Shown here one piece after another: positions 916-53,483 of a stretch of 64,000 nt of DNA (its first letter is position 1; each line of letters opens with the position of its first letter). The DNA lies in NCBI RefSeq assembly GCF_056746865.1, contig NZ_CM163382.1; one strand, 5' to 3'. A program made the position numbers and the translations under genes. Under the pieces are notes generated by a model that worked only from the letters and a program-made list of their open reading frames with translations, ran no database searches and was not told the origin of the DNA.

Positions 916-1315
916 ACAGTGTGCATTTTGGCAATAAATATGAAACCAACTGTCATGTCGGTTTTTTTAAAGGCCGAAGGTGGTAAACCTTCGGCCTTAG
1001 CTACGTTTCCTCAGTTATTCAATAAACTGACGGATCAGTTCCAGCAGCGCGATTAGCGCCTTAAGAACGATGAGAACTGCCTCTCTCCAAATTAGAGCAC
1101 CAGAATCAGCACCACCTGTATCCTGACCAGGACTTAAAAGTACTTTTCCGCACTGCGGTAATCCCTTGAGGCAGTATCACTACTAGCGTCGGGATTGTAT
1201 CGCCAACATAGCTGTTTGAATATGTAGGCATCCTGACTTATAATTCATTTGCTAGATGAGGACTGTTTCATTTCTGCCCGGAACCACCAAGTCTTGGGCG
1301 GAAAAAATAAAAAAA

Positions 1316-14304: not shown

Positions 14305-14316
14305 CTCTTGCCATTA

Positions 14317-14347
14317 GAGCGGATGCATTTTATCCCGCATCCGTTTT
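14317..14347 (+). terminator. Rho-independent terminator after glxK
   Basis: gcggatgc...gcatccg hairpin followed by T-tract. Confidence 0.6.
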
Positions 14348-14433
14348 TTACCTGAATTTACCGCAAAAAAAGCCACGGTATAAACCGTGGCAAAATCCAA
14401 CATAGCTAAAAATAATCAGGCGAGTGGTATGAC

Positions 14434-16486: not shown

Positions 16487-17536
16487 TTATTGCGCAAAGG
16501 GATTTTTCGTTTCGTATGACGTGTTATAAAGCGCGTCAGAAATTAAATACTGGTAAATATCATCAACAATTTCGATGCCTTCGACGGCGGCTTTGCGTTG
16601 TTTAATATCCTGATCCTGTCCGGGATAATAAACCTGGTTAAAACCGGGCGCGGGGGTTATGGCATTTAATTCGCGCATGGTCTGGCTAAGATGTTGACGG
16701 AATAGTTCGCTGGAGGAGAAAAAGTTCGGGTTAATAACGATATGTAATTGCCCCAAATTACGCCCGGCGTGTAAATCGTCATACATCGAACTAACCTGTC
16801 GCCCGAACGGTAAGCCGAGTAAGACGCCTGAGAGGACGTCAATCATCATCATCAGGCCATACCCTTTCGGTCCGGCGGCAGGGAGCAGGGCGTTAACTGC
16901 AAATGGATCGGTTGTTGGTGCTCCGTTTTTATCGACCGCCCAGGTATCCGGGATAGACATATTACGCGAGCGGGCGTCGAGCACTTTTCCCCATGCCTGT
17001 ACGGTAGTCGCCATATCAAAGGTAAGGATCTCGTCGCCTTCTCCCGGCGCGGCAAAGGCCAGTGGGTTAGTACCGTAGTAAATTTCCGCGCCGCCAAACG
17101 GCACCACCATTGGATCGGACTGGCACATCGAAATGCCAATTAATCCTGCGCGGGCTGCCTGCTGCACAAAATAAGAGATTGCGCCGCTGTGACCCATCCG
17201 GCTGATACCGACCACCGCAACGCCATTTTGCTGGGCGGTTTTGATGGCATGTTCCATACCCATTTTCGCCGCGACCTGTCCGGCAGCATTGTCGGCATGT
17301 AAAATTGCCGAACACGGCCCGGTTTCTTCAAGACGAAATTCCGGTTCACGGTTGGTGCCGCCTTTTGAAATGCGTTCCGCGTAGTATTCCACGCGCACCG
17401 CGCCATGAGAGTGGATCCCTCTGGCATCGGCGTAAACCAATACTTCAGCCACGGTTGCAGCGTGCTCACGTTTTAACCCAGCCTGGCAGAGTTTATTCTC
17501 GATTAGCTGGCGGAGTGTTTCCCGACTGATTTTCAT
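16487..17536 (-). CDS. allD: Ureidoglycolate dehydrogenase
   Basis: 349 aa; Ldh_2 (malate/L-lactate dehydrogenase-like) family. Confidence 0.88.
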   Translation of the reverse strand: MKISRETLRQLIENKLCQAGLKREHAATVAEVLVYADARGIHSHGAVRVEYYAERISKGGTNREPEFRLEETGPCSAILHADNAAGQVAAKMGMEHAIKTAQQNGVAVVGISRMGHSGAISYFVQQAARAGLIGISMCQSDPMVVPFGGAEIYYGTNPLAFAAPGEGDEILTFDMATTVQAWGKVLDARSRNMSIPDTWAVDKNGAPTTDPFAVNALLPAAGPKGYGLMMMIDVLSGVLLGLPFGRQVSSMYDDLHAGRNLGQLHIVINPNFFSSSELFRQHLSQTMRELNAITPAPGFNQVYYPGQDQDIKQRKAAVEGIEIVDDIYQYLISDALYNTSYETKNPFAQ

Positions 17537-17852
17537 CTGTCTTCCTTTTTAACGACGGTGTGAAGCATGACTGCAATTAACATACAGGGAAAATATCTGG
17601 ATTATGTGATCCAGACAGGCAAAAAAATATAGTTAGAATTTATTTGATAATCCGCTCGCTTTTAACCTGGTTTTTAAAACAACCACGCTTATTAAAAAAT
17701 AACACGTAATAGCATGGCGGTTATTTGAATTCTTTTGTTAATAATCCCTGTGTGATATTCATCACCTTATTTTCCCGTTCTCATCGATACCGTAATCGCC
17801 ACATTAACACTGCTCGTGCAATTGCCATGGGTGCAATTTTTAAGGAGTTGTT

Positions 17853-19520
17853 ATGATCCACGCCTTTATTAAAAAAGGGTGTTTTCAGGATTCTGTCAGT
17901 TTAATGATTATTTCACGAAAACTCAGCGAATCAGAAAATGTTGATGATGTTTCCGTAATGATGGGTACGCCCGCCAATAAAGCGTTATTAGATACCACAG
18001 GTTTCTGGCATGACGATTTTAATAACGCCACGCCGAACGATATTTGCGTGGCAATTCGTAGCGAAGCGGCGGATGCGGGGATCGCGCAGGCGATTATGCA
18101 ACAGCTTGAAGAGGCGCTAAAACAACTGGCGCAGGGTTCAGGCAGCAGCCAGGCGTTGACGCAGGTGCGTCGCTGGGACAGTGCCTGTCAGAAATTACCC
18201 GATGCCAGTCTGGCGCTGATTTCAGTGGCTGGCGAGTATGCGGCGGAGCTGGCTAATCAGGCGCTGGATCGCAACCTCAACGTGATGATGTTCTCCGATA
18301 ACGTCACGCTGGAAGATGAAATCCAGCTCAAAACCCGCGCACGCGATAAAGGCTTGCTGGTGATGGGGCCGGACTGCGGTACGTCGATGATTGCCGCCAC
18401 GCCGCTGGCTTTTGCTAACGTGATGCCGGAAGGCAATATTGGCGTCATTGGCGCTTCCGGTACCGGGATTCAGGAGCTGTGTTCGCAGATTGCGCTGGCA
18501 GGTGAGGGAATTACCCACGCGATTGGTCTTGGCGGGCGCGACCTCAGCCGTGAAGTGGGCGGCATCAGTGCGCTAACGGCGCTGGAAATGTTAAGCGCCG
18601 ACGCGAAAAGCGAAGTGCTGGCATTTGTTTCAAAACCACCTGCCGAAGCTGTGCGTCTGAAAATTGTTAATGCCATGAAAGCAACCGGCAAACCGACGGT
18701 GGCGCTGTTTTTAGGTTATACCCCGGCGGTGGCCCGCGACGAGAATGTCTGGTTTGCCTCCTCGCTTGATGAGGCCGCACGCCTGGCTTGCCTGCTTTCA
18801 CGCGTCACGGCGCGACGTAACGCAATAGCACCTGTCAGCAGCGGATTTATTTGCGGTTTGTATACCGGCGGTACGCTGGCTGCTGAAGCGGCGGGATTAC
18901 TTGCCGGACACCTTGGCGTGGAAGCCGACGATACCCATCAACATGGCATGATGCTCGACGCCGACGGACATCAGATCCTCGACCTGGGCGATGATTTTTA
19001 CACCGTCGGGCGTCCCCATCCGATGATCGACCCGACCTTACGCAACCTGTTAATTGCCGATCTCGGCGCTAAACCGCAAGTGCGCGTGTTGCTGCTTGAT
19101 GTCGTGATTGGCTTCGGTGCGACTGCCGATCCTGCCGCCTCGCTGGTGAGCGCCTGGCAAAAAGCCTGTGCCGCGCGTCCAGACAATCAACCACTGTATG
19201 CCATTGCCACGGTGACAGGCACCGAACGTGACCCGCAATGCCGCTCGCAACAAATCGCCACGCTGGAAGATGCGGGGATCGCGGTCGTGAGTTCGCTGCC
19301 GGAAGCCACCTTGCTGGCGGCAGCGTTAATTCATCCGCTCTCGCCTGCCACACAGCAACACACACCGTCATTACTGGAAAACGTCGCCGTGATTAACATC
19401 GGATTACGCAGCTTTGCGCTGGCGCTACAAAGCGCCAGCAAACCGGTTGTGCATTACCAATGGTCGCCAGTCGCCGGCGGCAATAAAAAACTGGCTCGTT
19501 TATTAGAACGTTTGCAATAA
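17853..19520 (+). CDS. fdrA: FdrA protein (CoA-ligase/succinyl-CoA-synthetase-like fold)
   Basis: 555 aa; recognised as FdrA. Confidence 0.85.
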   Translation: MIHAFIKKGCFQDSVSLMIISRKLSESENVDDVSVMMGTPANKALLDTTGFWHDDFNNATPNDICVAIRSEAADAGIAQAIMQQLEEALKQLAQGSGSSQALTQVRRWDSACQKLPDASLALISVAGEYAAELANQALDRNLNVMMFSDNVTLEDEIQLKTRARDKGLLVMGPDCGTSMIAATPLAFANVMPEGNIGVIGASGTGIQELCSQIALAGEGITHAIGLGGRDLSREVGGISALTALEMLSADAKSEVLAFVSKPPAEAVRLKIVNAMKATGKPTVALFLGYTPAVARDENVWFASSLDEAARLACLLSRVTARRNAIAPVSSGFICGLYTGGTLAAEAAGLLAGHLGVEADDTHQHGMMLDADGHQILDLGDDFYTVGRPHPMIDPTLRNLLIADLGAKPQVRVLLLDVVIGFGATADPAASLVSAWQKACAARPDNQPLYAIATVTGTERDPQCRSQQIATLEDAGIAVVSSLPEATLLAAALIHPLSPATQQHTPSLLENVAVINIGLRSFALALQSASKPVVHYQWSPVAGGNKKLARLLERLQ

Positions 19521-19529
19521 GGGGTTCCC

Positions 19530-20789
19530 ATGTTTACATCAGTGGCGCAAGCCAATGCTGCGGTTATCGAACAAATTCGTCGTGCTCGTCCACACTGGCT
19601 GGATGTGCAACCGGCTTCTTCACTTATCAGCGAACTAAACGAGGGCAAAACACTGCTTCACGCCGGGCCGCCAATGTGCTGGCAGGAGATGACCGGACCC
19701 ATGAAAGGGGCATGTGTGGGCGCATGTCTGTTTGAAGGCTGGGCGAAAGATGAAGCGCAGGCGCTGGCAATGCTGGATCAGGGGGAAGTGAACTTCATTC
19801 CTTGTCACCATGTGAATGCCGTCGGGCCAATGGGCGGCATTACTTCTGCCAGTATGCCGATGCTGGTGGTCGAGAACGTGACCGACGGCAACCGGGCGTA
19901 CTGCAACCTCAACGAAGGTATCGGCAAAGTGATGCGTTTTGGCGCTTACGGCGAAGATGTCCTGACTCGCCATCGCTGGATGCGCGATGTGTTAATGCCA
20001 GTATTAAGCGCGGCGCTGGGGCGCATGGAGCGCGGTATCGATCTCACCGCGATGATGGCGCAGGGCATTACCATGGGCGATGAGTTCCATCAACGCAATA
20101 TTGCTTCCTCAGCACTGTTAATGCGTACGCTGGCCCCACAAATTGCTCGCCTCGATCATGATAAACAGCACATTGCGGAAGTGATGGATTTCCTCAGCGT
20201 GACCGATCAGTTCTTCCTCAACCTCGCGATGGCCTACTGCAAGGCGGCGATGGATGCTGGCGCGATGATCCGCTCAGGCAGCATCGTCACGGCTATGACC
20301 CGCAACGGCAATATGTTCGGGATTCGGGTCAGCGGGCTGGGCGAACGCTGGTTTACTGCGCCTGTAAACACTCCCCAAGGTCTGTTTTTCACCGGTTTCT
20401 CGCAGGAGCAGGCGAACCCGGATATGGGCGATAGCGCAATTACCGAAACCTTTGGTATTGGCGGAGCGGCGATGATCGCAGCGCCTGGCGTAACGCGCTT
20501 TGTCGGTGCGGGTGGCATGGAAGCGGCCAGAGCGGTATCTGAAGAGATGGCGGAAATCTTCCTTGAACGCAATATGCAGTTGCAGATCCCCGGCTGGGAT
20601 TTTCAGGGCGCGTGCCTGGGGCTGGATATTCGTCGCGTGGTAGAAACCGGCATTACGCCACTCATCAATACCGGTATCGCCCATAAAGAGGCGGGGATCG
20701 GGCAGATTGGCGCAGGCACTGTGCGGGCACCGCTGGCGTGCTTTGAACAGGCGCTGGAAGCACTGGCTGAAAGCATGGGGATTGGTTGA
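19530..20789 (+). CDS. ylbE: DUF1116 protein, apparently intact
   Basis: 419 aa uninterrupted ORF; synteny fdrA-ylbE-ylbF. Confidence 0.8.
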
Positions 20790-20799
20790 GGAACGCACA

Positions 20800-21615
20800 A
20801 TGACGATCATCCATCCTCTGCTTGCCAGCCGTAGTGCACCGAATTATCGCCAGTCCTGGCGGTTAGCGGGCGTGTGGCGGCGGGCGATTAACCTGATGAC
20901 GGAAAGCGGTGAATTGTTAACACTGCATCGTCAGGGTAGTGGTTTCGGCCCCGGAGGATGGGTGCTTCGCCGCGCGCAATTCGATGCGTTATGCGGTGGA
21001 TTATGCGGCAATGAACAACCGCAGGTTGTGGCACAAGGGATTCGCCTCGGACGTTTCACGGTTAAACAGCCACAGCGTTATTGTTTGCTGCGTATTACGC
21101 CGCCTGCGCATCCTCAACCGCTTGCAGCTGCATGGATGCAACGCGCGGAGGAAACCGGGCTTTTCGGGCCACTGGCGTTGGCGGCAGGCGATCCGCTTCC
21201 TGCTGAATTACGCCAGTTTCGCCACTGTTTTCAGGCCGCGCTCAATGGCGTGAAGACCGACTGGCGGCACTGGCTGGGCAAAGGTCCGGGATTAACGCCG
21301 AGTCATGATGACACGCTGAGCGGAATGCTGCTGGCGGCCTGGTATTATGGCGCTTTAGATACGCGCTCCGGTCGCCAGTTTTTTGCCTGTTCCGACAATC
21401 TTCAACTCGTTACCACAGCGGTGAGCGTCAGTTATTTACGTTATGCCGCGCAAGGATATTTCGCCTCGCCACTCCTGCACTTTGTCCATGCTCTGAGTTG
21501 CCCGAAACGTACCGCTGTTGCGATTGATTCGCTGCTGGCGCTGGGGCATACGTCAGGGGCAGATACGCTGCTGGGGTTCTGGCTTGGTCAACAATTATTA
21601 CAAGGAAAACCATGA
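20800..21615 (+). CDS. ylbF: Uncharacterized protein YlbF (DUF2877-like)
   Basis: 271 aa from ATG 20800 ([12 protein letters not shown]...); track ORF from 20707 overlaps ylbE and is likely overextended. Confidence 0.75.
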
Positions 21616-22505
21616 AAACACTGGTTGTGGCTCTTGGGGGCAACGCCTTACTCCAGCGCGGTGAGGCGCTGACGGCGGAAAATCAATATCGCAATATCGC
21701 CAGTGCTGTACCCGCGCTGGCACGCCTGGCCCGTTCTTATCGGCTGGCGATTGTTCACGGCAACGGGCCGCAGGTGGGGCTGCTGGCATTGCAGAATCTG
21801 GCGTGGAAAGAAGTGGAACCGTATCCGCTGGATGTGCTGGTGGCGGAAAGCCAGGGGATGATTGGCTATATGCTGGCGCAGAGCTTGAGCGCACAGCCGC
21901 AGATGCCGCCTGTCACGACGGTGCTGACGCGCATTGAAGTTTCGCCTGATGATCCGGCATTTTTACAGCCAGAGAAGTTTATCGGTCCGGTTTATCAGCC
22001 AGAAGAACAAAAGGCACTGGAAGCGGCTTACGGCTGGCAGATGAAACGTGATGGTAAATACTTGCGCCGGGTGGTGGCGTCTCCGCAACCGCGTAAAATT
22101 CTCGACAGCGAAGCCATCGAGTTGTTGCTCAAAGAGGGGCATGTGGTGATTTGCAGTGGTGGTGGCGGTGTGCCTGTGACGGACGACGGAGCAGGGAGCG
22201 AAGCAGTGATTGATAAAGATCTCGCCGCTGCGTTGCTCGCCGAGCAGATTAACGCCGATGGGCTGGTGATCCTCACCGATGCTGACGCGGTTTATGAAAA
22301 CTGGGGAACGCCGCAGCAACGCGCCATTCGCCGTGCCACACCGGATGAGTTAGCGCCATTTGCCAAAGCCGATGGTTCGATGGGGCCGAAGGTAACGGCG
22401 GTGAGTGGCTATGTCAGAAGCCGTGGCAAACCTGCGTGGATTGGGGCGTTATCGCGGATTGAAGAGACGCTGGCGGGCGAAGCGGGGACCTGTATTTCGC
22501 TGTAG
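21612..22505 (+). CDS. ybcF: Carbamate kinase-like protein
   Basis: 297 aa; amino-acid-kinase fold ([13 protein letters not shown]...); start overlaps ylbF stop. Confidence 0.85.
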
Positions 22506-22509
22506 TCGT

Positions 22510-22620
22510 AGGCATTAGACATTTGTGCCTGATGCGACGCTTGACGCGTCTTATCAGGCCTACAATGGGTACCGGAGCGTTAAGCCGGATAAGGCGTTCA
22601 CGCCGAATCCGGTAAGAATA
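22510..22620. repeat. REP/BIME palindromic units
   Basis: gcctgatgcgacgcttgacgcgtcttatcaggcctac ... gccggataaggcgttcacgccgaatccggtaag. Confidence 0.7.
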
Positions 22621-22631
22621 TGTGCACCAGG

Positions 22632-23699
22632 TTAACTGAACTTACTCTGCGCCCAAATCACGCCGCTGGCATACTCTGGCGGCAGCAGCGGGATTAAGGC
22701 TTCCAGCGTCGCGGTCAGACGCGATGTGTCGCTGTCGGTCAAATTCAGATGCCCCACTTTACGGCCCGGACGGACTTCTTTGTCGTACCAGTGCAGATGC
22801 ACCAGCGGCAATTTCAGCCAGTCATAATTCACATCGCTACCAATCAGGTTGATCATCACCGACGGACTATTCACTACCGGTTGCGGTAACGGCAGATCGG
22901 TAATCGCCCGCAGATGCAGCTCAAACTGGCTGATGCTGGCACCGTTTTGTGTCCAGTGACCGCTGTTATGCACACGCGGAGCCAGTTCGTTGATCAGCAG
23001 ACCTTGCGGGGTGACAAAACACTCCATCGCCATCACGCCCACATAGCCCAGCTCCTGCATAATCGCCGACAGCATCTCTTCGGCTTGCGCTTGCTGCTGC
23101 GCATTGGCCTGCGGGAAAGCGACGCTGGTACGCAAAATACCGTCCTGATGCAGGTTATGCGTCAGCGGATAAAACACGGTGCTACCATCAAAGCCGCGCG
23201 CGCCAACCAGCGACACTTCGCCAGAGAAGTTAATGCCCTGCTCGACAATACATTCGCCGTAACACTCTGCCGGTAACTGTTCGGTTTCATCGGCACGTAA
23301 ACGCCATTGACCGCGACCGTCATAGCCACCAGTGCGACGCTTAACAATCGCCAGCTCACCTAAACGATCAAACACCGCAGGCCACTCGCTGCGATCGGCA
23401 AGTAACTGCCACGGTGCGGTCGGCAGGTGGAGCTTATCGAAAAGCTGTTTCTGAGTCAGACGGTCGGCAATAATCGGGAACACATCGCGGTTCACAAAGG
23501 CCGGATGGCGCGCCAGTTCGCGGGTTAATGCGGTTTCCGGCCAGCGTTCGATCTCAGCGGTAATCACGCTTTGTTGAAAAGGCACCGCCGCCGGTTCAGC
23601 GTCCAGTCCGACCGGCCAGACAGCAATGCCTAACGGTTCGCCTGCCTGACGCAGCATACGGCCTAACTGCCCGTTACCGAGGACGCAAACCTGTTTCAT
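22632..23699 (-). CDS. purK: N5-carboxyaminoimidazole ribonucleotide synthase
   Basis: 355 aa; ATP-grasp; start overlaps purE stop. Confidence 0.92.
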
Positions 23700-52400: not shown

Positions 52401-53483
52401 TTAGAACTGGTAAACCAGACCTACAGCAACGATGTCATCAGTATCAATACCAGCTGTTTTGGTAAACTTACTATCGTCAATTAAGTTGATTTTGTAATCA
52501 ACAAAAGTGGACATGTTTTTATTAAAGTAGTAAGTAGCACCGACATCGACATACTTGACTAAGTCTCGGTCACCATGAACACCAAGGTCTTTACCTTTTG
52601 ACTGAAGGTAAGCAACAGATGGGCGCAGACCGAAGTCAAACTGATATTGTGCTACTGCTTCAAAGTTTTGTGCTTTGTTTGCAATATGGTTATTACCAAA
52701 AACGGTCATATTCTGAGTTTCAGAATATGTGGTAGCCAGATAGATATTGTTCGCATCATATTTCAGGCCTGCAGCCCATACTTCCGCATTTTTGCCGGAG
52801 GCATTGAATTTGCTCTTACCATAGGCGACCTGACCGTCAGTGCGATCTGATTTAGCATAGGTTGCACCCACGCCGAATCCTTCATACTCATAAGTAGTGG
52901 AGAAACCGAAACCATCACCATTGGCTTCAGTTACGTCAGTGCGGTCATTTTTACCCTGATACTGAGCAGCAAAGTTCAGGCCATCGACCAGACCAAAGAA
53001 GTCGTTGTTACGATAAGTTGCAACACCAGTAGTGCGACCAGTCATGAACACATCTGTTTGGGTCCAGGTATCACCACCGAATTCTGGCAGGACGTCAGTC
53101 CACGCACCGATGTCGTATGCTACACCGTAGTTACGGCCGTAATCGATTGAGCCGTAATCACCAAATTTCAGGCCTGCAAATGCAAGACGGGTTTTGTCTT
53201 TGGAAGAACCTTGAGATTCAGCGCGGTTGCCTTTGAATTCATATTCCCACTGACCGAAACCAGTCAGTTGATCGTTGATTTGGGTTTCACCTTTGAAGCC
53301 AAGACGGGCATAAGTAGTATCACCATCATCTGCATCATTAGAGGAGAAGTAGTGCTTAGCATTAACTTTCCCGTACAGATCCAGCTTGTTACTGTCTTTA
53401 TTATAAATTTCAGCTGCCTGAGCAGACATCGCCATCAGTACTGATGCAGCTACAGCAGAAATTGCCACTGTTAATTTTTTCAT
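52401..53483 (-). CDS. nmpC: General porin (OmpC/OmpF/NmpC family), uninterrupted
   Basis: 360 aa; signal peptide [23 protein letters not shown]; C-terminal ...GLVYQF. Confidence 0.88.

Follow-up and report, generated by a model that had tools for sequence, protein, structure and literature searches.

Experiments in Escherichia coli K-12 strains MG1655 and MC4100 have established what the operon now called allFGHK does in the anaerobic breakdown of allantoin (Kim and Kim, 2022, 2024, 2025). Purified AllFGH is an oxamic transcarbamylase; single and triple deletions of allF, allG and allH abolish oxamate formation, and its full restoration requires the three genes together, MG1655 being the source of both the deletion mutants and the genes cloned for enzyme work (PMC11326118). 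The fourth product, AllK (YbcF), is a catabolic carbamate kinase that makes ATP and whose kinetics have been measured, and the four genes are co-transcribed, as established by RT-PCR (PMC9843812). Its expression depends on activation by AllS and ArcA, both backed by EMSA data (PMC12535856). The enzyme activities, the three-subunit requirement, co-transcription and the dependence on AllS and ArcA are therefore experimental results in K-12, and the function of the locus, with its genes, enzymes and regulators, is already known. Apart from the three papers by Kim and Kim, we found no structure or mechanism paper on AllFGH in the literature searched for 2023-2026.

In this pathway, AllD, whose gene lies divergently upstream, oxidizes ureidoglycolate to oxalurate, the substrate of AllFGH, and the AllF-AllG-AllH enzyme converts oxalurate and phosphate to oxamate and carbamoyl phosphate. 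AllK then passes the phosphate of carbamoyl phosphate to ADP, yielding ATP and carbamate, the latter decaying to NH3 and CO2. All four genes are expressed as a single transcript from the AT-rich 316-nt spacer between allD and allF, with activation by AllS in response to allantoin and by ArcA under anaerobiosis.

The reaction belongs to the same class as those of PyrB (aspartate transcarbamylase, ATCase), ArgI/ArgF (ornithine transcarbamylase, OTCase) and YgeW, namely reversible carbamoyl transfer between carbamoyl phosphate and an amino group, and catabolic OTCase, like AllFGH, feeds a carbamate kinase that makes ATP. Classical transcarbamylases are homotrimers encoded by a single catalytic gene, whereas AllFGH requires three different subunits. 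The wider interest of the family lies in this transcarbamylase of three subunits, which has no relation to either ATCase or OTCase.

The allFGHK locus and its neighbourhood

The window analysed here is a stretch of 64,000 nt of an E. coli chromosome (contig NZ_CM163382.1, assembly GCF_056746865.1). Its segment from 17853 to 22505 is almost certainly the allFGHK operon, which serves the final part of the oxamate branch by which allantoin is degraded anaerobically (Table 1). The list of open reading frames places four genes, fdrA-ylbE-ylbF-ybcF in the old nomenclature and allF, allG, allH and allK in the present one, at exactly the coordinates and in the frames given in an earlier note on this DNA. 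The first three genes are separated by 9 nt (fdrA/ylbE) and 10 nt (ylbE/ylbF), and the stop codon of ylbF overlaps the start of ybcF in a 4-nt ATGA, so that the fourth gene is translationally coupled to the third. The length of YlbF is counted from the annotated ATG; the mechanical reading frame begins at a TTG at 20707.

Table 1. Features of the allFGHK region of the window, with predicted functions.
Feature	Position	Strand	Basis
allD, ureidoglycolate dehydrogenase (predicted)	16487-17536	-	ORF; annotation of identical region (strain 118UI) and K-12
allD-allF (fdrA) divergent intergenic region, 316 nt, 36% GC, with predicted allF promoter	17537-17852
fdrA = allF, 555 aa, predicted oxamic transcarbamylase subunit	17853-19520	+	ORF; PF02629 and PF00549 (Pfam); NF004760 (NCBIfam)
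ylbE = allG, 419 aa, predicted oxamic transcarbamylase subunit (former DUF1116)	19530-20789	+	ORF; PF06545 (Pfam)
GGGGG run, ylbE nt 252-256, site of the historical 'K-12 frameshift'	19781-19785	+	G5, frame kept
ylbF = allH, 271 aa, predicted oxamic transcarbamylase subunit (former DUF2877)	20800-21615	+	PF11392 (Pfam)
ybcF = allK, 297 aa, predicted catabolic carbamate kinase	21612-22505	+	NF006926, TIGR00746; PDB matches
ybcF-purK intergenic region, REP-like palindromic repeats, convergent with purK	22506-22631		alignment to K-12

Comparison with allFGHK of K-12 MG1655 (b0518, b4572, b0520, b0521) reveals an identical gene content and order and equal protein lengths (555, 419, 271 and 297 aa), with the divergent allD, the purK neighbour and the 316-nt promoter spacer also shared. 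The coding regions are 96.5-97.2% identical at the nucleotide level without indels, and the differences are allelic only: AllF, AllG, AllH and AllK differ at 10, 7, 5 and 3 amino acids, respectively, the promoter carries 12 SNPs, and downstream there is one REP-like unit fewer. As in K-12 and strain 118UI, the operon diverges from allD-allC-allE and adjoins the rest of the allantoin regulon, next to which the earlier note had placed it. Because of this synteny and the few differences per protein (~98-99% identity), we infer the same function for this strain; orthology with K-12 suggests that the products of the window would have oxamic transcarbamylase and carbamate kinase activity, and as far as the sequence can tell, nothing counts against the allFGHK identity. 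With 22 amino acid differences across AllFGH, 3 in AllK and 12 promoter SNPs, quantitative behaviour could nevertheless differ. The earlier proposal of a carbamate- or oxamate-producing catabolic branch holds in substance, though not its description as poorly characterised, since activities, deletions and regulation have been published; the deletions and enzymology that it recommended are likewise already available for MG1655 and MC4100.

The whole cluster is present at a coverage of at least 80% in 5407 of 5426 complete E. coli genomes. The four genes have a GC content of 56-58%, and both GC and GC3 match those of the neighbouring purK and purE, giving no sign of recent transfer. The locus is a standard, near-universal E. 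coli operon, and its presence lends little special significance to the window. In Klebsiella pneumoniae, by contrast, the allantoin region is accessory and lineage-specific; the same genes (fdrA, ylbE, ylbF and arcC, with allABCDRS) are listed among the chromosomal virulence-associated genes of the hypervirulent ST23 lineage and tracked as markers there (PMC7718023).

The ylbE reading frame and the K-12 records

The ylbE gene of the window is uninterrupted, as the earlier note had described; its 419 codons contain no stop, and the homopolymeric run has five G residues. That note also gave the K-12 gene as annotated with a frameshift, which is true of the superseded MG1655 v2 reference and of the W3110 record but not of the current MG1655 record (NC_000913.3), in which ylbE (b4572) is annotated as an intact 1260-nt coding sequence of 419 aa. 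The window differs from the latter at 35 nucleotides and 7 amino acids, with no indels. The comparison with K-12 that the note suggested locates the frameshift precisely: relative to MG1655 v3, ylbE of W3110 carries a synonymous G>A change at nt 114 and lacks one residue of the G5 run (nt 252-256), and the resulting G4 allele runs into a stop after 85 codons. Both differences also appear in published comparisons with the old MG1655 reference, where they lie at 547,694 and 547,831 (PMC5460176; PMC4759930); G4 was present in that superseded v2 sequence and is still found in the W3110 record.

It is highly improbable that the intact gene is an allele distinguishing this strain and that K-12 truly lacks a functional YlbE. 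Such a reading draws on the W3110 RefSeq record (NC_007779.1), where ylbE is still flagged 'frameshifted', and on older literature in which the MG1655 reference was treated as ylbE-negative (PMC4759930). Against it stand the intact gene of NC_000913.3, the intact allele in the K-12 stocks ENZ535, ATCC 47076, NCM3722 and resequenced MG1655, and the ascription of the frameshift to a probable sequencing error by both CanOE (PMC3364942) and UniProt. When a reconstructed 84-nt G4 allele covering this one historical site was searched among 5417 E. coli records with a 100% match required, only four listed records carried it (W3110, CIT, LIM and CAR). For MG1655 the reading is already refuted, by the intact NC_000913.3 gene and by oxamate production that is allG-dependent (PMC11326118). 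CIT, LIM and CAR are K-12-like assemblies.

The gene normally has an uninterrupted 419-aa frame. What needs correcting is the view of ylbE as a K-12 pseudogene: it is not one in MG1655, and the frameshift survives only in legacy records such as that of W3110. The earlier note would have taken an identical and intact K-12 ylbE as refutation; the gene is intact although, with seven amino acid differences, not identical, and the contrast with K-12 is in essence refuted. The note's suggestion that the copy in the window offers a better template than K-12 finds no support, as MG1655 ylbE is intact and the published deletions and cloned genes come from that strain.

Subunit families and the acyl-CoA synthetase annotation

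All four proteins of the operon are assigned to their families above curated cut-offs. YlbE matches PF06545 with 326.5 bits (cutoff 27) and YlbF matches PF11392 with 103.4 bits (cutoff 25), the former DUF1116 and DUF2877, for which Pfam now uses the names "AllG" and "AllH". Two AllH motifs that are invariant in the homolog alignment, G-x-G-x-GLT-xxx-DD and G-x-TSGAD-x-L-x-G, are kept in the window as stretches of 12 and 11 residues, respectively. The only matches of AllH in a profile search of PDB sequences, to chalcone synthase, were weak (E at least 0.06) and were dismissed as chance. A member of the DUF1116/AllG family from Enterococcus faecalis V583 has been deposited as an uncharacterised protein (PDB 3CLQ). 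YbcF scores 619.1 bits against the NCBIfam equivalog NF006926 (cutoff 416) and 426 bits against TIGR00746 (arcC; cutoff 358.25), and matches the solved carbamate kinases 8CRV (E = 4.6e-89) and 1E19 (E = 1.2e-58). None of AllF, AllG and AllH matched a transcarbamylase Pfam family.

FdrA is covered over its full length (1-555) by the NCBIfam model NF004760 'FdrA' (1035.9 bits, cutoff 433) and is identical to K-12 FdrA, whose residues 82-555 constitute PDB entry 3DMY, at 545 of 555 positions. It shares a Rossmann-type CoA_binding domain (PF02629) and a Ligase_CoA domain (PF00549) with SucD and the NDP-forming acyl-CoA synthetases, resembling the alpha subunit of succinyl-CoA synthetase, and its GLGGRD segment aligns with the GIGGDP segment of SucD. 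Unlike SucD, it has an additional ~100 aa at the N-terminus and, at 336-491, another Ligase_CoA domain. A phmmer comparison of FdrA with SucC gave no match, and therefore no likeness to a beta subunit is claimed for this second domain.

These domains, together with an older database view, the NCBIfam subfamily name 'acyl-CoA synthetase FdrA' and the CanOE hypothesis of 2012 (PMC3364942), would favour FdrA acting as an acyl-CoA synthetase, for instance an oxamate:CoA ligase, with YlbE or YlbF alone as the transcarbamylase. We consider this very unlikely. The published reaction of AllFGH is a phosphorolytic carbamoyl transfer, while that of the succinyl-CoA synthetase superfamily is CoA ligation; the activity was measured on a purified recombinant AllF-AllG-AllH preparation, and deletion of allF alone abolishes oxamate, all three genes being needed for its full restoration (PMC11326118). 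FdrA itself falls far below the cut-offs for succinyl-CoA ligase alpha subunits (50.9 against 336 bits for NF004230; 45.9 against 353 bits for TIGR01019). The phmmer alignment of FdrA 118-291 to SucD 66-239 ends ahead of the phosphohistidine loop GKRMGHAGA, there is no histidine in FdrA 288-335, and the GH[AS]G motif is absent from the whole protein. FdrA thus differs from succinyl-CoA synthetase in having neither the phosphohistidine loop nor an ATP-grasp beta subunit, and the operon encodes no ATP-grasp partner. The assignment of FdrA as the AllF subunit of the transcarbamylase is accordingly preferred. The NCBI model and the RefSeq annotation still call FdrA an 'acyl-CoA synthetase'; this label and the names fdrA, ylbE, ylbF and ybcF lag behind the allF, allG, allH and allK of the literature.

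Promoter spacer and downstream repeats

The allD-allF spacer is 96% identical to that of K-12, with the same 316-nt length and no indel. In K-12, AllS binds a fragment at -203/-144 from the allF ATG and phosphorylated ArcA (ArcA-P) one at -142/-83, as seen by EMSA (PMC12535856). Counted from the allF ATG, these fragments correspond to 17650-17709 and 17711-17770 of the window, and by analogy with K-12 both regulators would be expected to bind the spacer of this strain. Scans of 17400-22700 with consensus promoter and terminator patterns returned fewer matches than shuffled controls and were uninformative.

The 12 SNPs relative to K-12 lie inside the AllS- and ArcA-bound promoter segments. The promoter allele is not rare, being at least 99% identical in 1699 of 5338 records. 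Alongside carbamoyl transfer by AllFGH without a transcarbamylase fold, which we put forward tentatively and for the enzyme family in general, there is a minor second reading, possible if rather doubtful, that these clustered, lineage-specific SNPs make expression differ from one E. coli lineage to another. At the other end of the operon, the ybcF-purK spacer contains one REP-like unit of ~70 nt fewer than its K-12 counterpart.

The allFGHK operon and its occurrence

An ORF scan placed fdrA, ylbE, ylbF and ybcF (now allF, allG, allH and allK) on the same strand, as four ORFs whose coordinates match exactly those given for the cluster in the earlier note. Successive genes are joined by a 9-nt gap, a 10-nt gap and a 4-nt ATGA overlap, with a purine-rich stretch directly 5' of the start at each junction; the cluster is thus a compact operon. 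Its 5' neighbors, allD, allC and allE, are divergent, while purK and purE lie 3' of it in convergent orientation.

Features of the window
Feature	Position	Strand	Length	Remarks
fdrA (allF)	17853-19520	+	555 aa	ORF scan
ylbE (allG)	19530-20789	+	419 aa	ORF scan
ylbF (allH)	20800-21615	+	271 aa	ORF scan; counted from the annotated ATG, mechanical ORF start is TTG at 20707
ybcF (allK)	21612-22505	+	297 aa	ORF scan
GGGGG in ylbE	19781-19785
AllS-bound fragment	17650-17709			mapped by position from K-12
ArcA-bound fragment	17711-17770			mapped by position from K-12
Zone of spacer SNPs	17658-17780
ybcF-purK spacer	22506-22631		126 nt
glxK-allE spacer	~14305-14433		129 nt	118UI annotation
Lambdoid prophage	~35835-64000
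Prophage porin gene	~52401-53483	-		ompC in 118UI annotation
dinQ-like toxin gene	~1015-1092	-	25 aa	118UI annotation

Megablast detected the 4653-nt cluster in 5423 of 5426 complete E. coli genomes, with coverage of at least 80% in 5407 and 100% identity in many strains, such as 118UI. These near-universal matches identify the window as E. coli chromosome; its first 40.5 kb differ from strain 118UI by 8 mismatches.

All four proteins score far over the thresholds of curated models. FdrA matches NCBIfam NF004760 (1036 bits, cut-off 433) and the Pfam families CoA_binding and Ligase_CoA, YlbE matches PF06545, currently named 'Oxamate carbamoyltransferase subunit AllG', YlbF matches PF11392 ('AllH'), and YbcF the carbamate kinase equivalogs NF006926 and TIGR00746. 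By every criterion that can be tested in sequence, the locus belongs with the known allFGHK operon and differs from its K-12 form only allelically.

The function of the cluster is settled by the literature. RT-PCR revealed a single fdrA-ylbE-ylbF-ybcF transcript, and purified YbcF is a carbamate kinase, renamed AllK (Kim and Kim, 2022; PMC9843812). With K-12 MG1655 as the background of the deletions and the source of the cloned genes, production of oxamate from allantoin was abolished by deletion of allF or allG, nearly so by deletion of allH, and fully restored only by allFGH together; the purified AllF-AllG-AllH proteins showed oxamic transcarbamylase activity (Km for carbamoyl phosphate, 1.3 mM; Km for oxamate, 36.9 mM) (Kim and Kim, 2024; PMC11326118). 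Allantoin induces the operon ~38-fold under anaerobiosis in an AllS- and ArcA-dependent manner, and fragments -203/-144 and -142/-83 were bound in EMSA (Kim and Kim, 2025; PMC12535856). The anaerobic deletion assays and enzymology that the earlier note had proposed as future work have therefore already been published in these three studies.

The pathway steps were shown for K-12; synteny and ~98-99% protein identity (10, 7, 5 and 3 amino acid differences in FdrA, YlbE, YlbF and YbcF, respectively) suggest that they also operate in the window strain. Here AllD would yield oxalurate, which AllFGH would phosphorolyse to oxamate and carbamoyl phosphate; from the latter and ADP, AllK would form ATP and carbamate, and the carbamate would decay to NH3 and CO2, for an anaerobic gain of one ATP and an extra NH3 per allantoin. 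Nothing at the cluster is new, and its residual value lies in correcting an outdated view of K-12 ylbE and gene names that lag behind.

Origin of the ylbE frameshift

The earlier note had contrasted an uninterrupted ylbE with a frameshifted K-12 copy. The window ORF is indeed uninterrupted, but the contrast falls away, as in the current MG1655 record (NC_000913.3) ylbE (b4572) is likewise annotated as intact, with a CDS of 1260 nt and 419 aa; the two genes are equal in length, and their indel-free alignment shows 35 nt and 7 aa differences. The K-12 frameshift nevertheless has a real origin in the older MG1655 reference. Mapping of reads onto that reference gave A>G at 547,694 and an additional G at 547,831, which together turn the 'pseudogene' into an ORF (PMC5460176), and intact alleles were reported in stock ENZ535 and ATCC 47076 (PMC4759930) and in NCM3722 (PMC3045373).

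The W3110 RefSeq record (NC_007779.1, 547581-548839) still flags ylbE as 'frameshifted'. Alignment of this copy to the current MG1655 gene revealed two differences, a synonymous G>A at nt 114 and a G5 run (nt 252-256) shortened by one G, which locates the frameshift that the earlier note had sought; the G4 frame reads ...EQGK-stop and terminates after 85 codons. We searched 5417 records with a rebuilt 84-nt G4 query. Among the matches listed, only W3110, CIT, LIM and CAR (4) were identical to it, and the remaining genomes showed a one-base gap. The ylbE coordinates of CAR, LIM and CIT (NZ_CP026026-28) coincide with the old MG1655 numbering, which suggests that these are reference-guided assemblies carrying over a reference error. 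Intact ylbE is the rule in E. coli.

Subunits and related enzymes

FdrA resembles the alpha subunit scaffold of succinyl-CoA synthetase (SCS), but lacks a defining feature of that family, the phosphohistidine loop. Its alignment with E. coli SucD is limited to FdrA 118-291 and SucD 66-239, ending just short of the loop GKRMGHAGA; no His was found in FdrA 288-335 and no GH[AS]G motif across the whole protein. Succinyl-CoA ligase alpha models score FdrA far under cut-off, and we rejected an SCS-type ligase identity on these grounds. The missing feature is consistent with the published finding that FdrA is not a CoA ligase. Nor does the locus belong, by sequence, to the classical transcarbamylases. 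Structures exist for K-12 FdrA (residues 82-555; PDB 3DMY) and for the Enterococcus faecalis V583 homolog of YlbE, deposited as uncharacterised (PDB 3CLQ); a PDB search found none for YlbF or an AllFGH complex.

In homolog alignments AllG is highly conserved, at 72-93% identity across Enterobacterales and Orbales, while AllH shows only 38-68% identity in comparable taxa, apart from the invariant motifs G-x-G-x-GLT-xxx-DD and G-x-TSGAD-x-L-x-G; among Enterobacterales YlbF diverges much faster than YlbE. Four homologs (P0002, P0025, P0135 and P0140) are predicted AllG-AllH fusions of 548 and 485 aa or AllH-carbamate kinase fusions of 432 and 430 aa, which may represent genuine fusions, or errors arising from frameshifts or assembly where the gene junctions are short.

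Spacers and neighboring features

The 316-nt allD-allF promoter spacer is equal in length to that of K-12 and 96% identical. All 12 SNPs are confined to -195 to -73 of the allF ATG, a zone that falls within the fragments binding AllS and ArcA in K-12, and the outer 121 nt and 72 nt are invariant (span test, P ~2e-4 to 1e-3). As the allele is common, with at least 99% identity in 1699 of 5338 E. coli records, the pattern is probably ordinary lineage variation.

The ybcF-purK spacer consists of REP-like palindromic units and spans 194 nt in K-12 MG1655, which has one more unit of ~70 nt (window junction 22548/22549). The glxK-allE spacer is ~98 nt shorter than the 227 nt of K-12, probably another REP/BIME copy-number difference. 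The prophage adjoins tRNA-Arg, the DLP12 site in K-12, and carries genes for integrase, exo/bet/gam, a CI-like S24 repressor, O/P replication, rusA, quuD, lysis, terminase, portal and capsid. The match to 118UI is close up to ~47.7 kb, mosaic beyond and heavily diverged from ~56.3 kb (1239 mismatches), a breakdown that marks the prophage as a mosaic. Its porin gene is flanked by the Q antiterminator and the lysis cassette; the dinQ-like type I toxin gene lies between ybbP and mnmH/selU.
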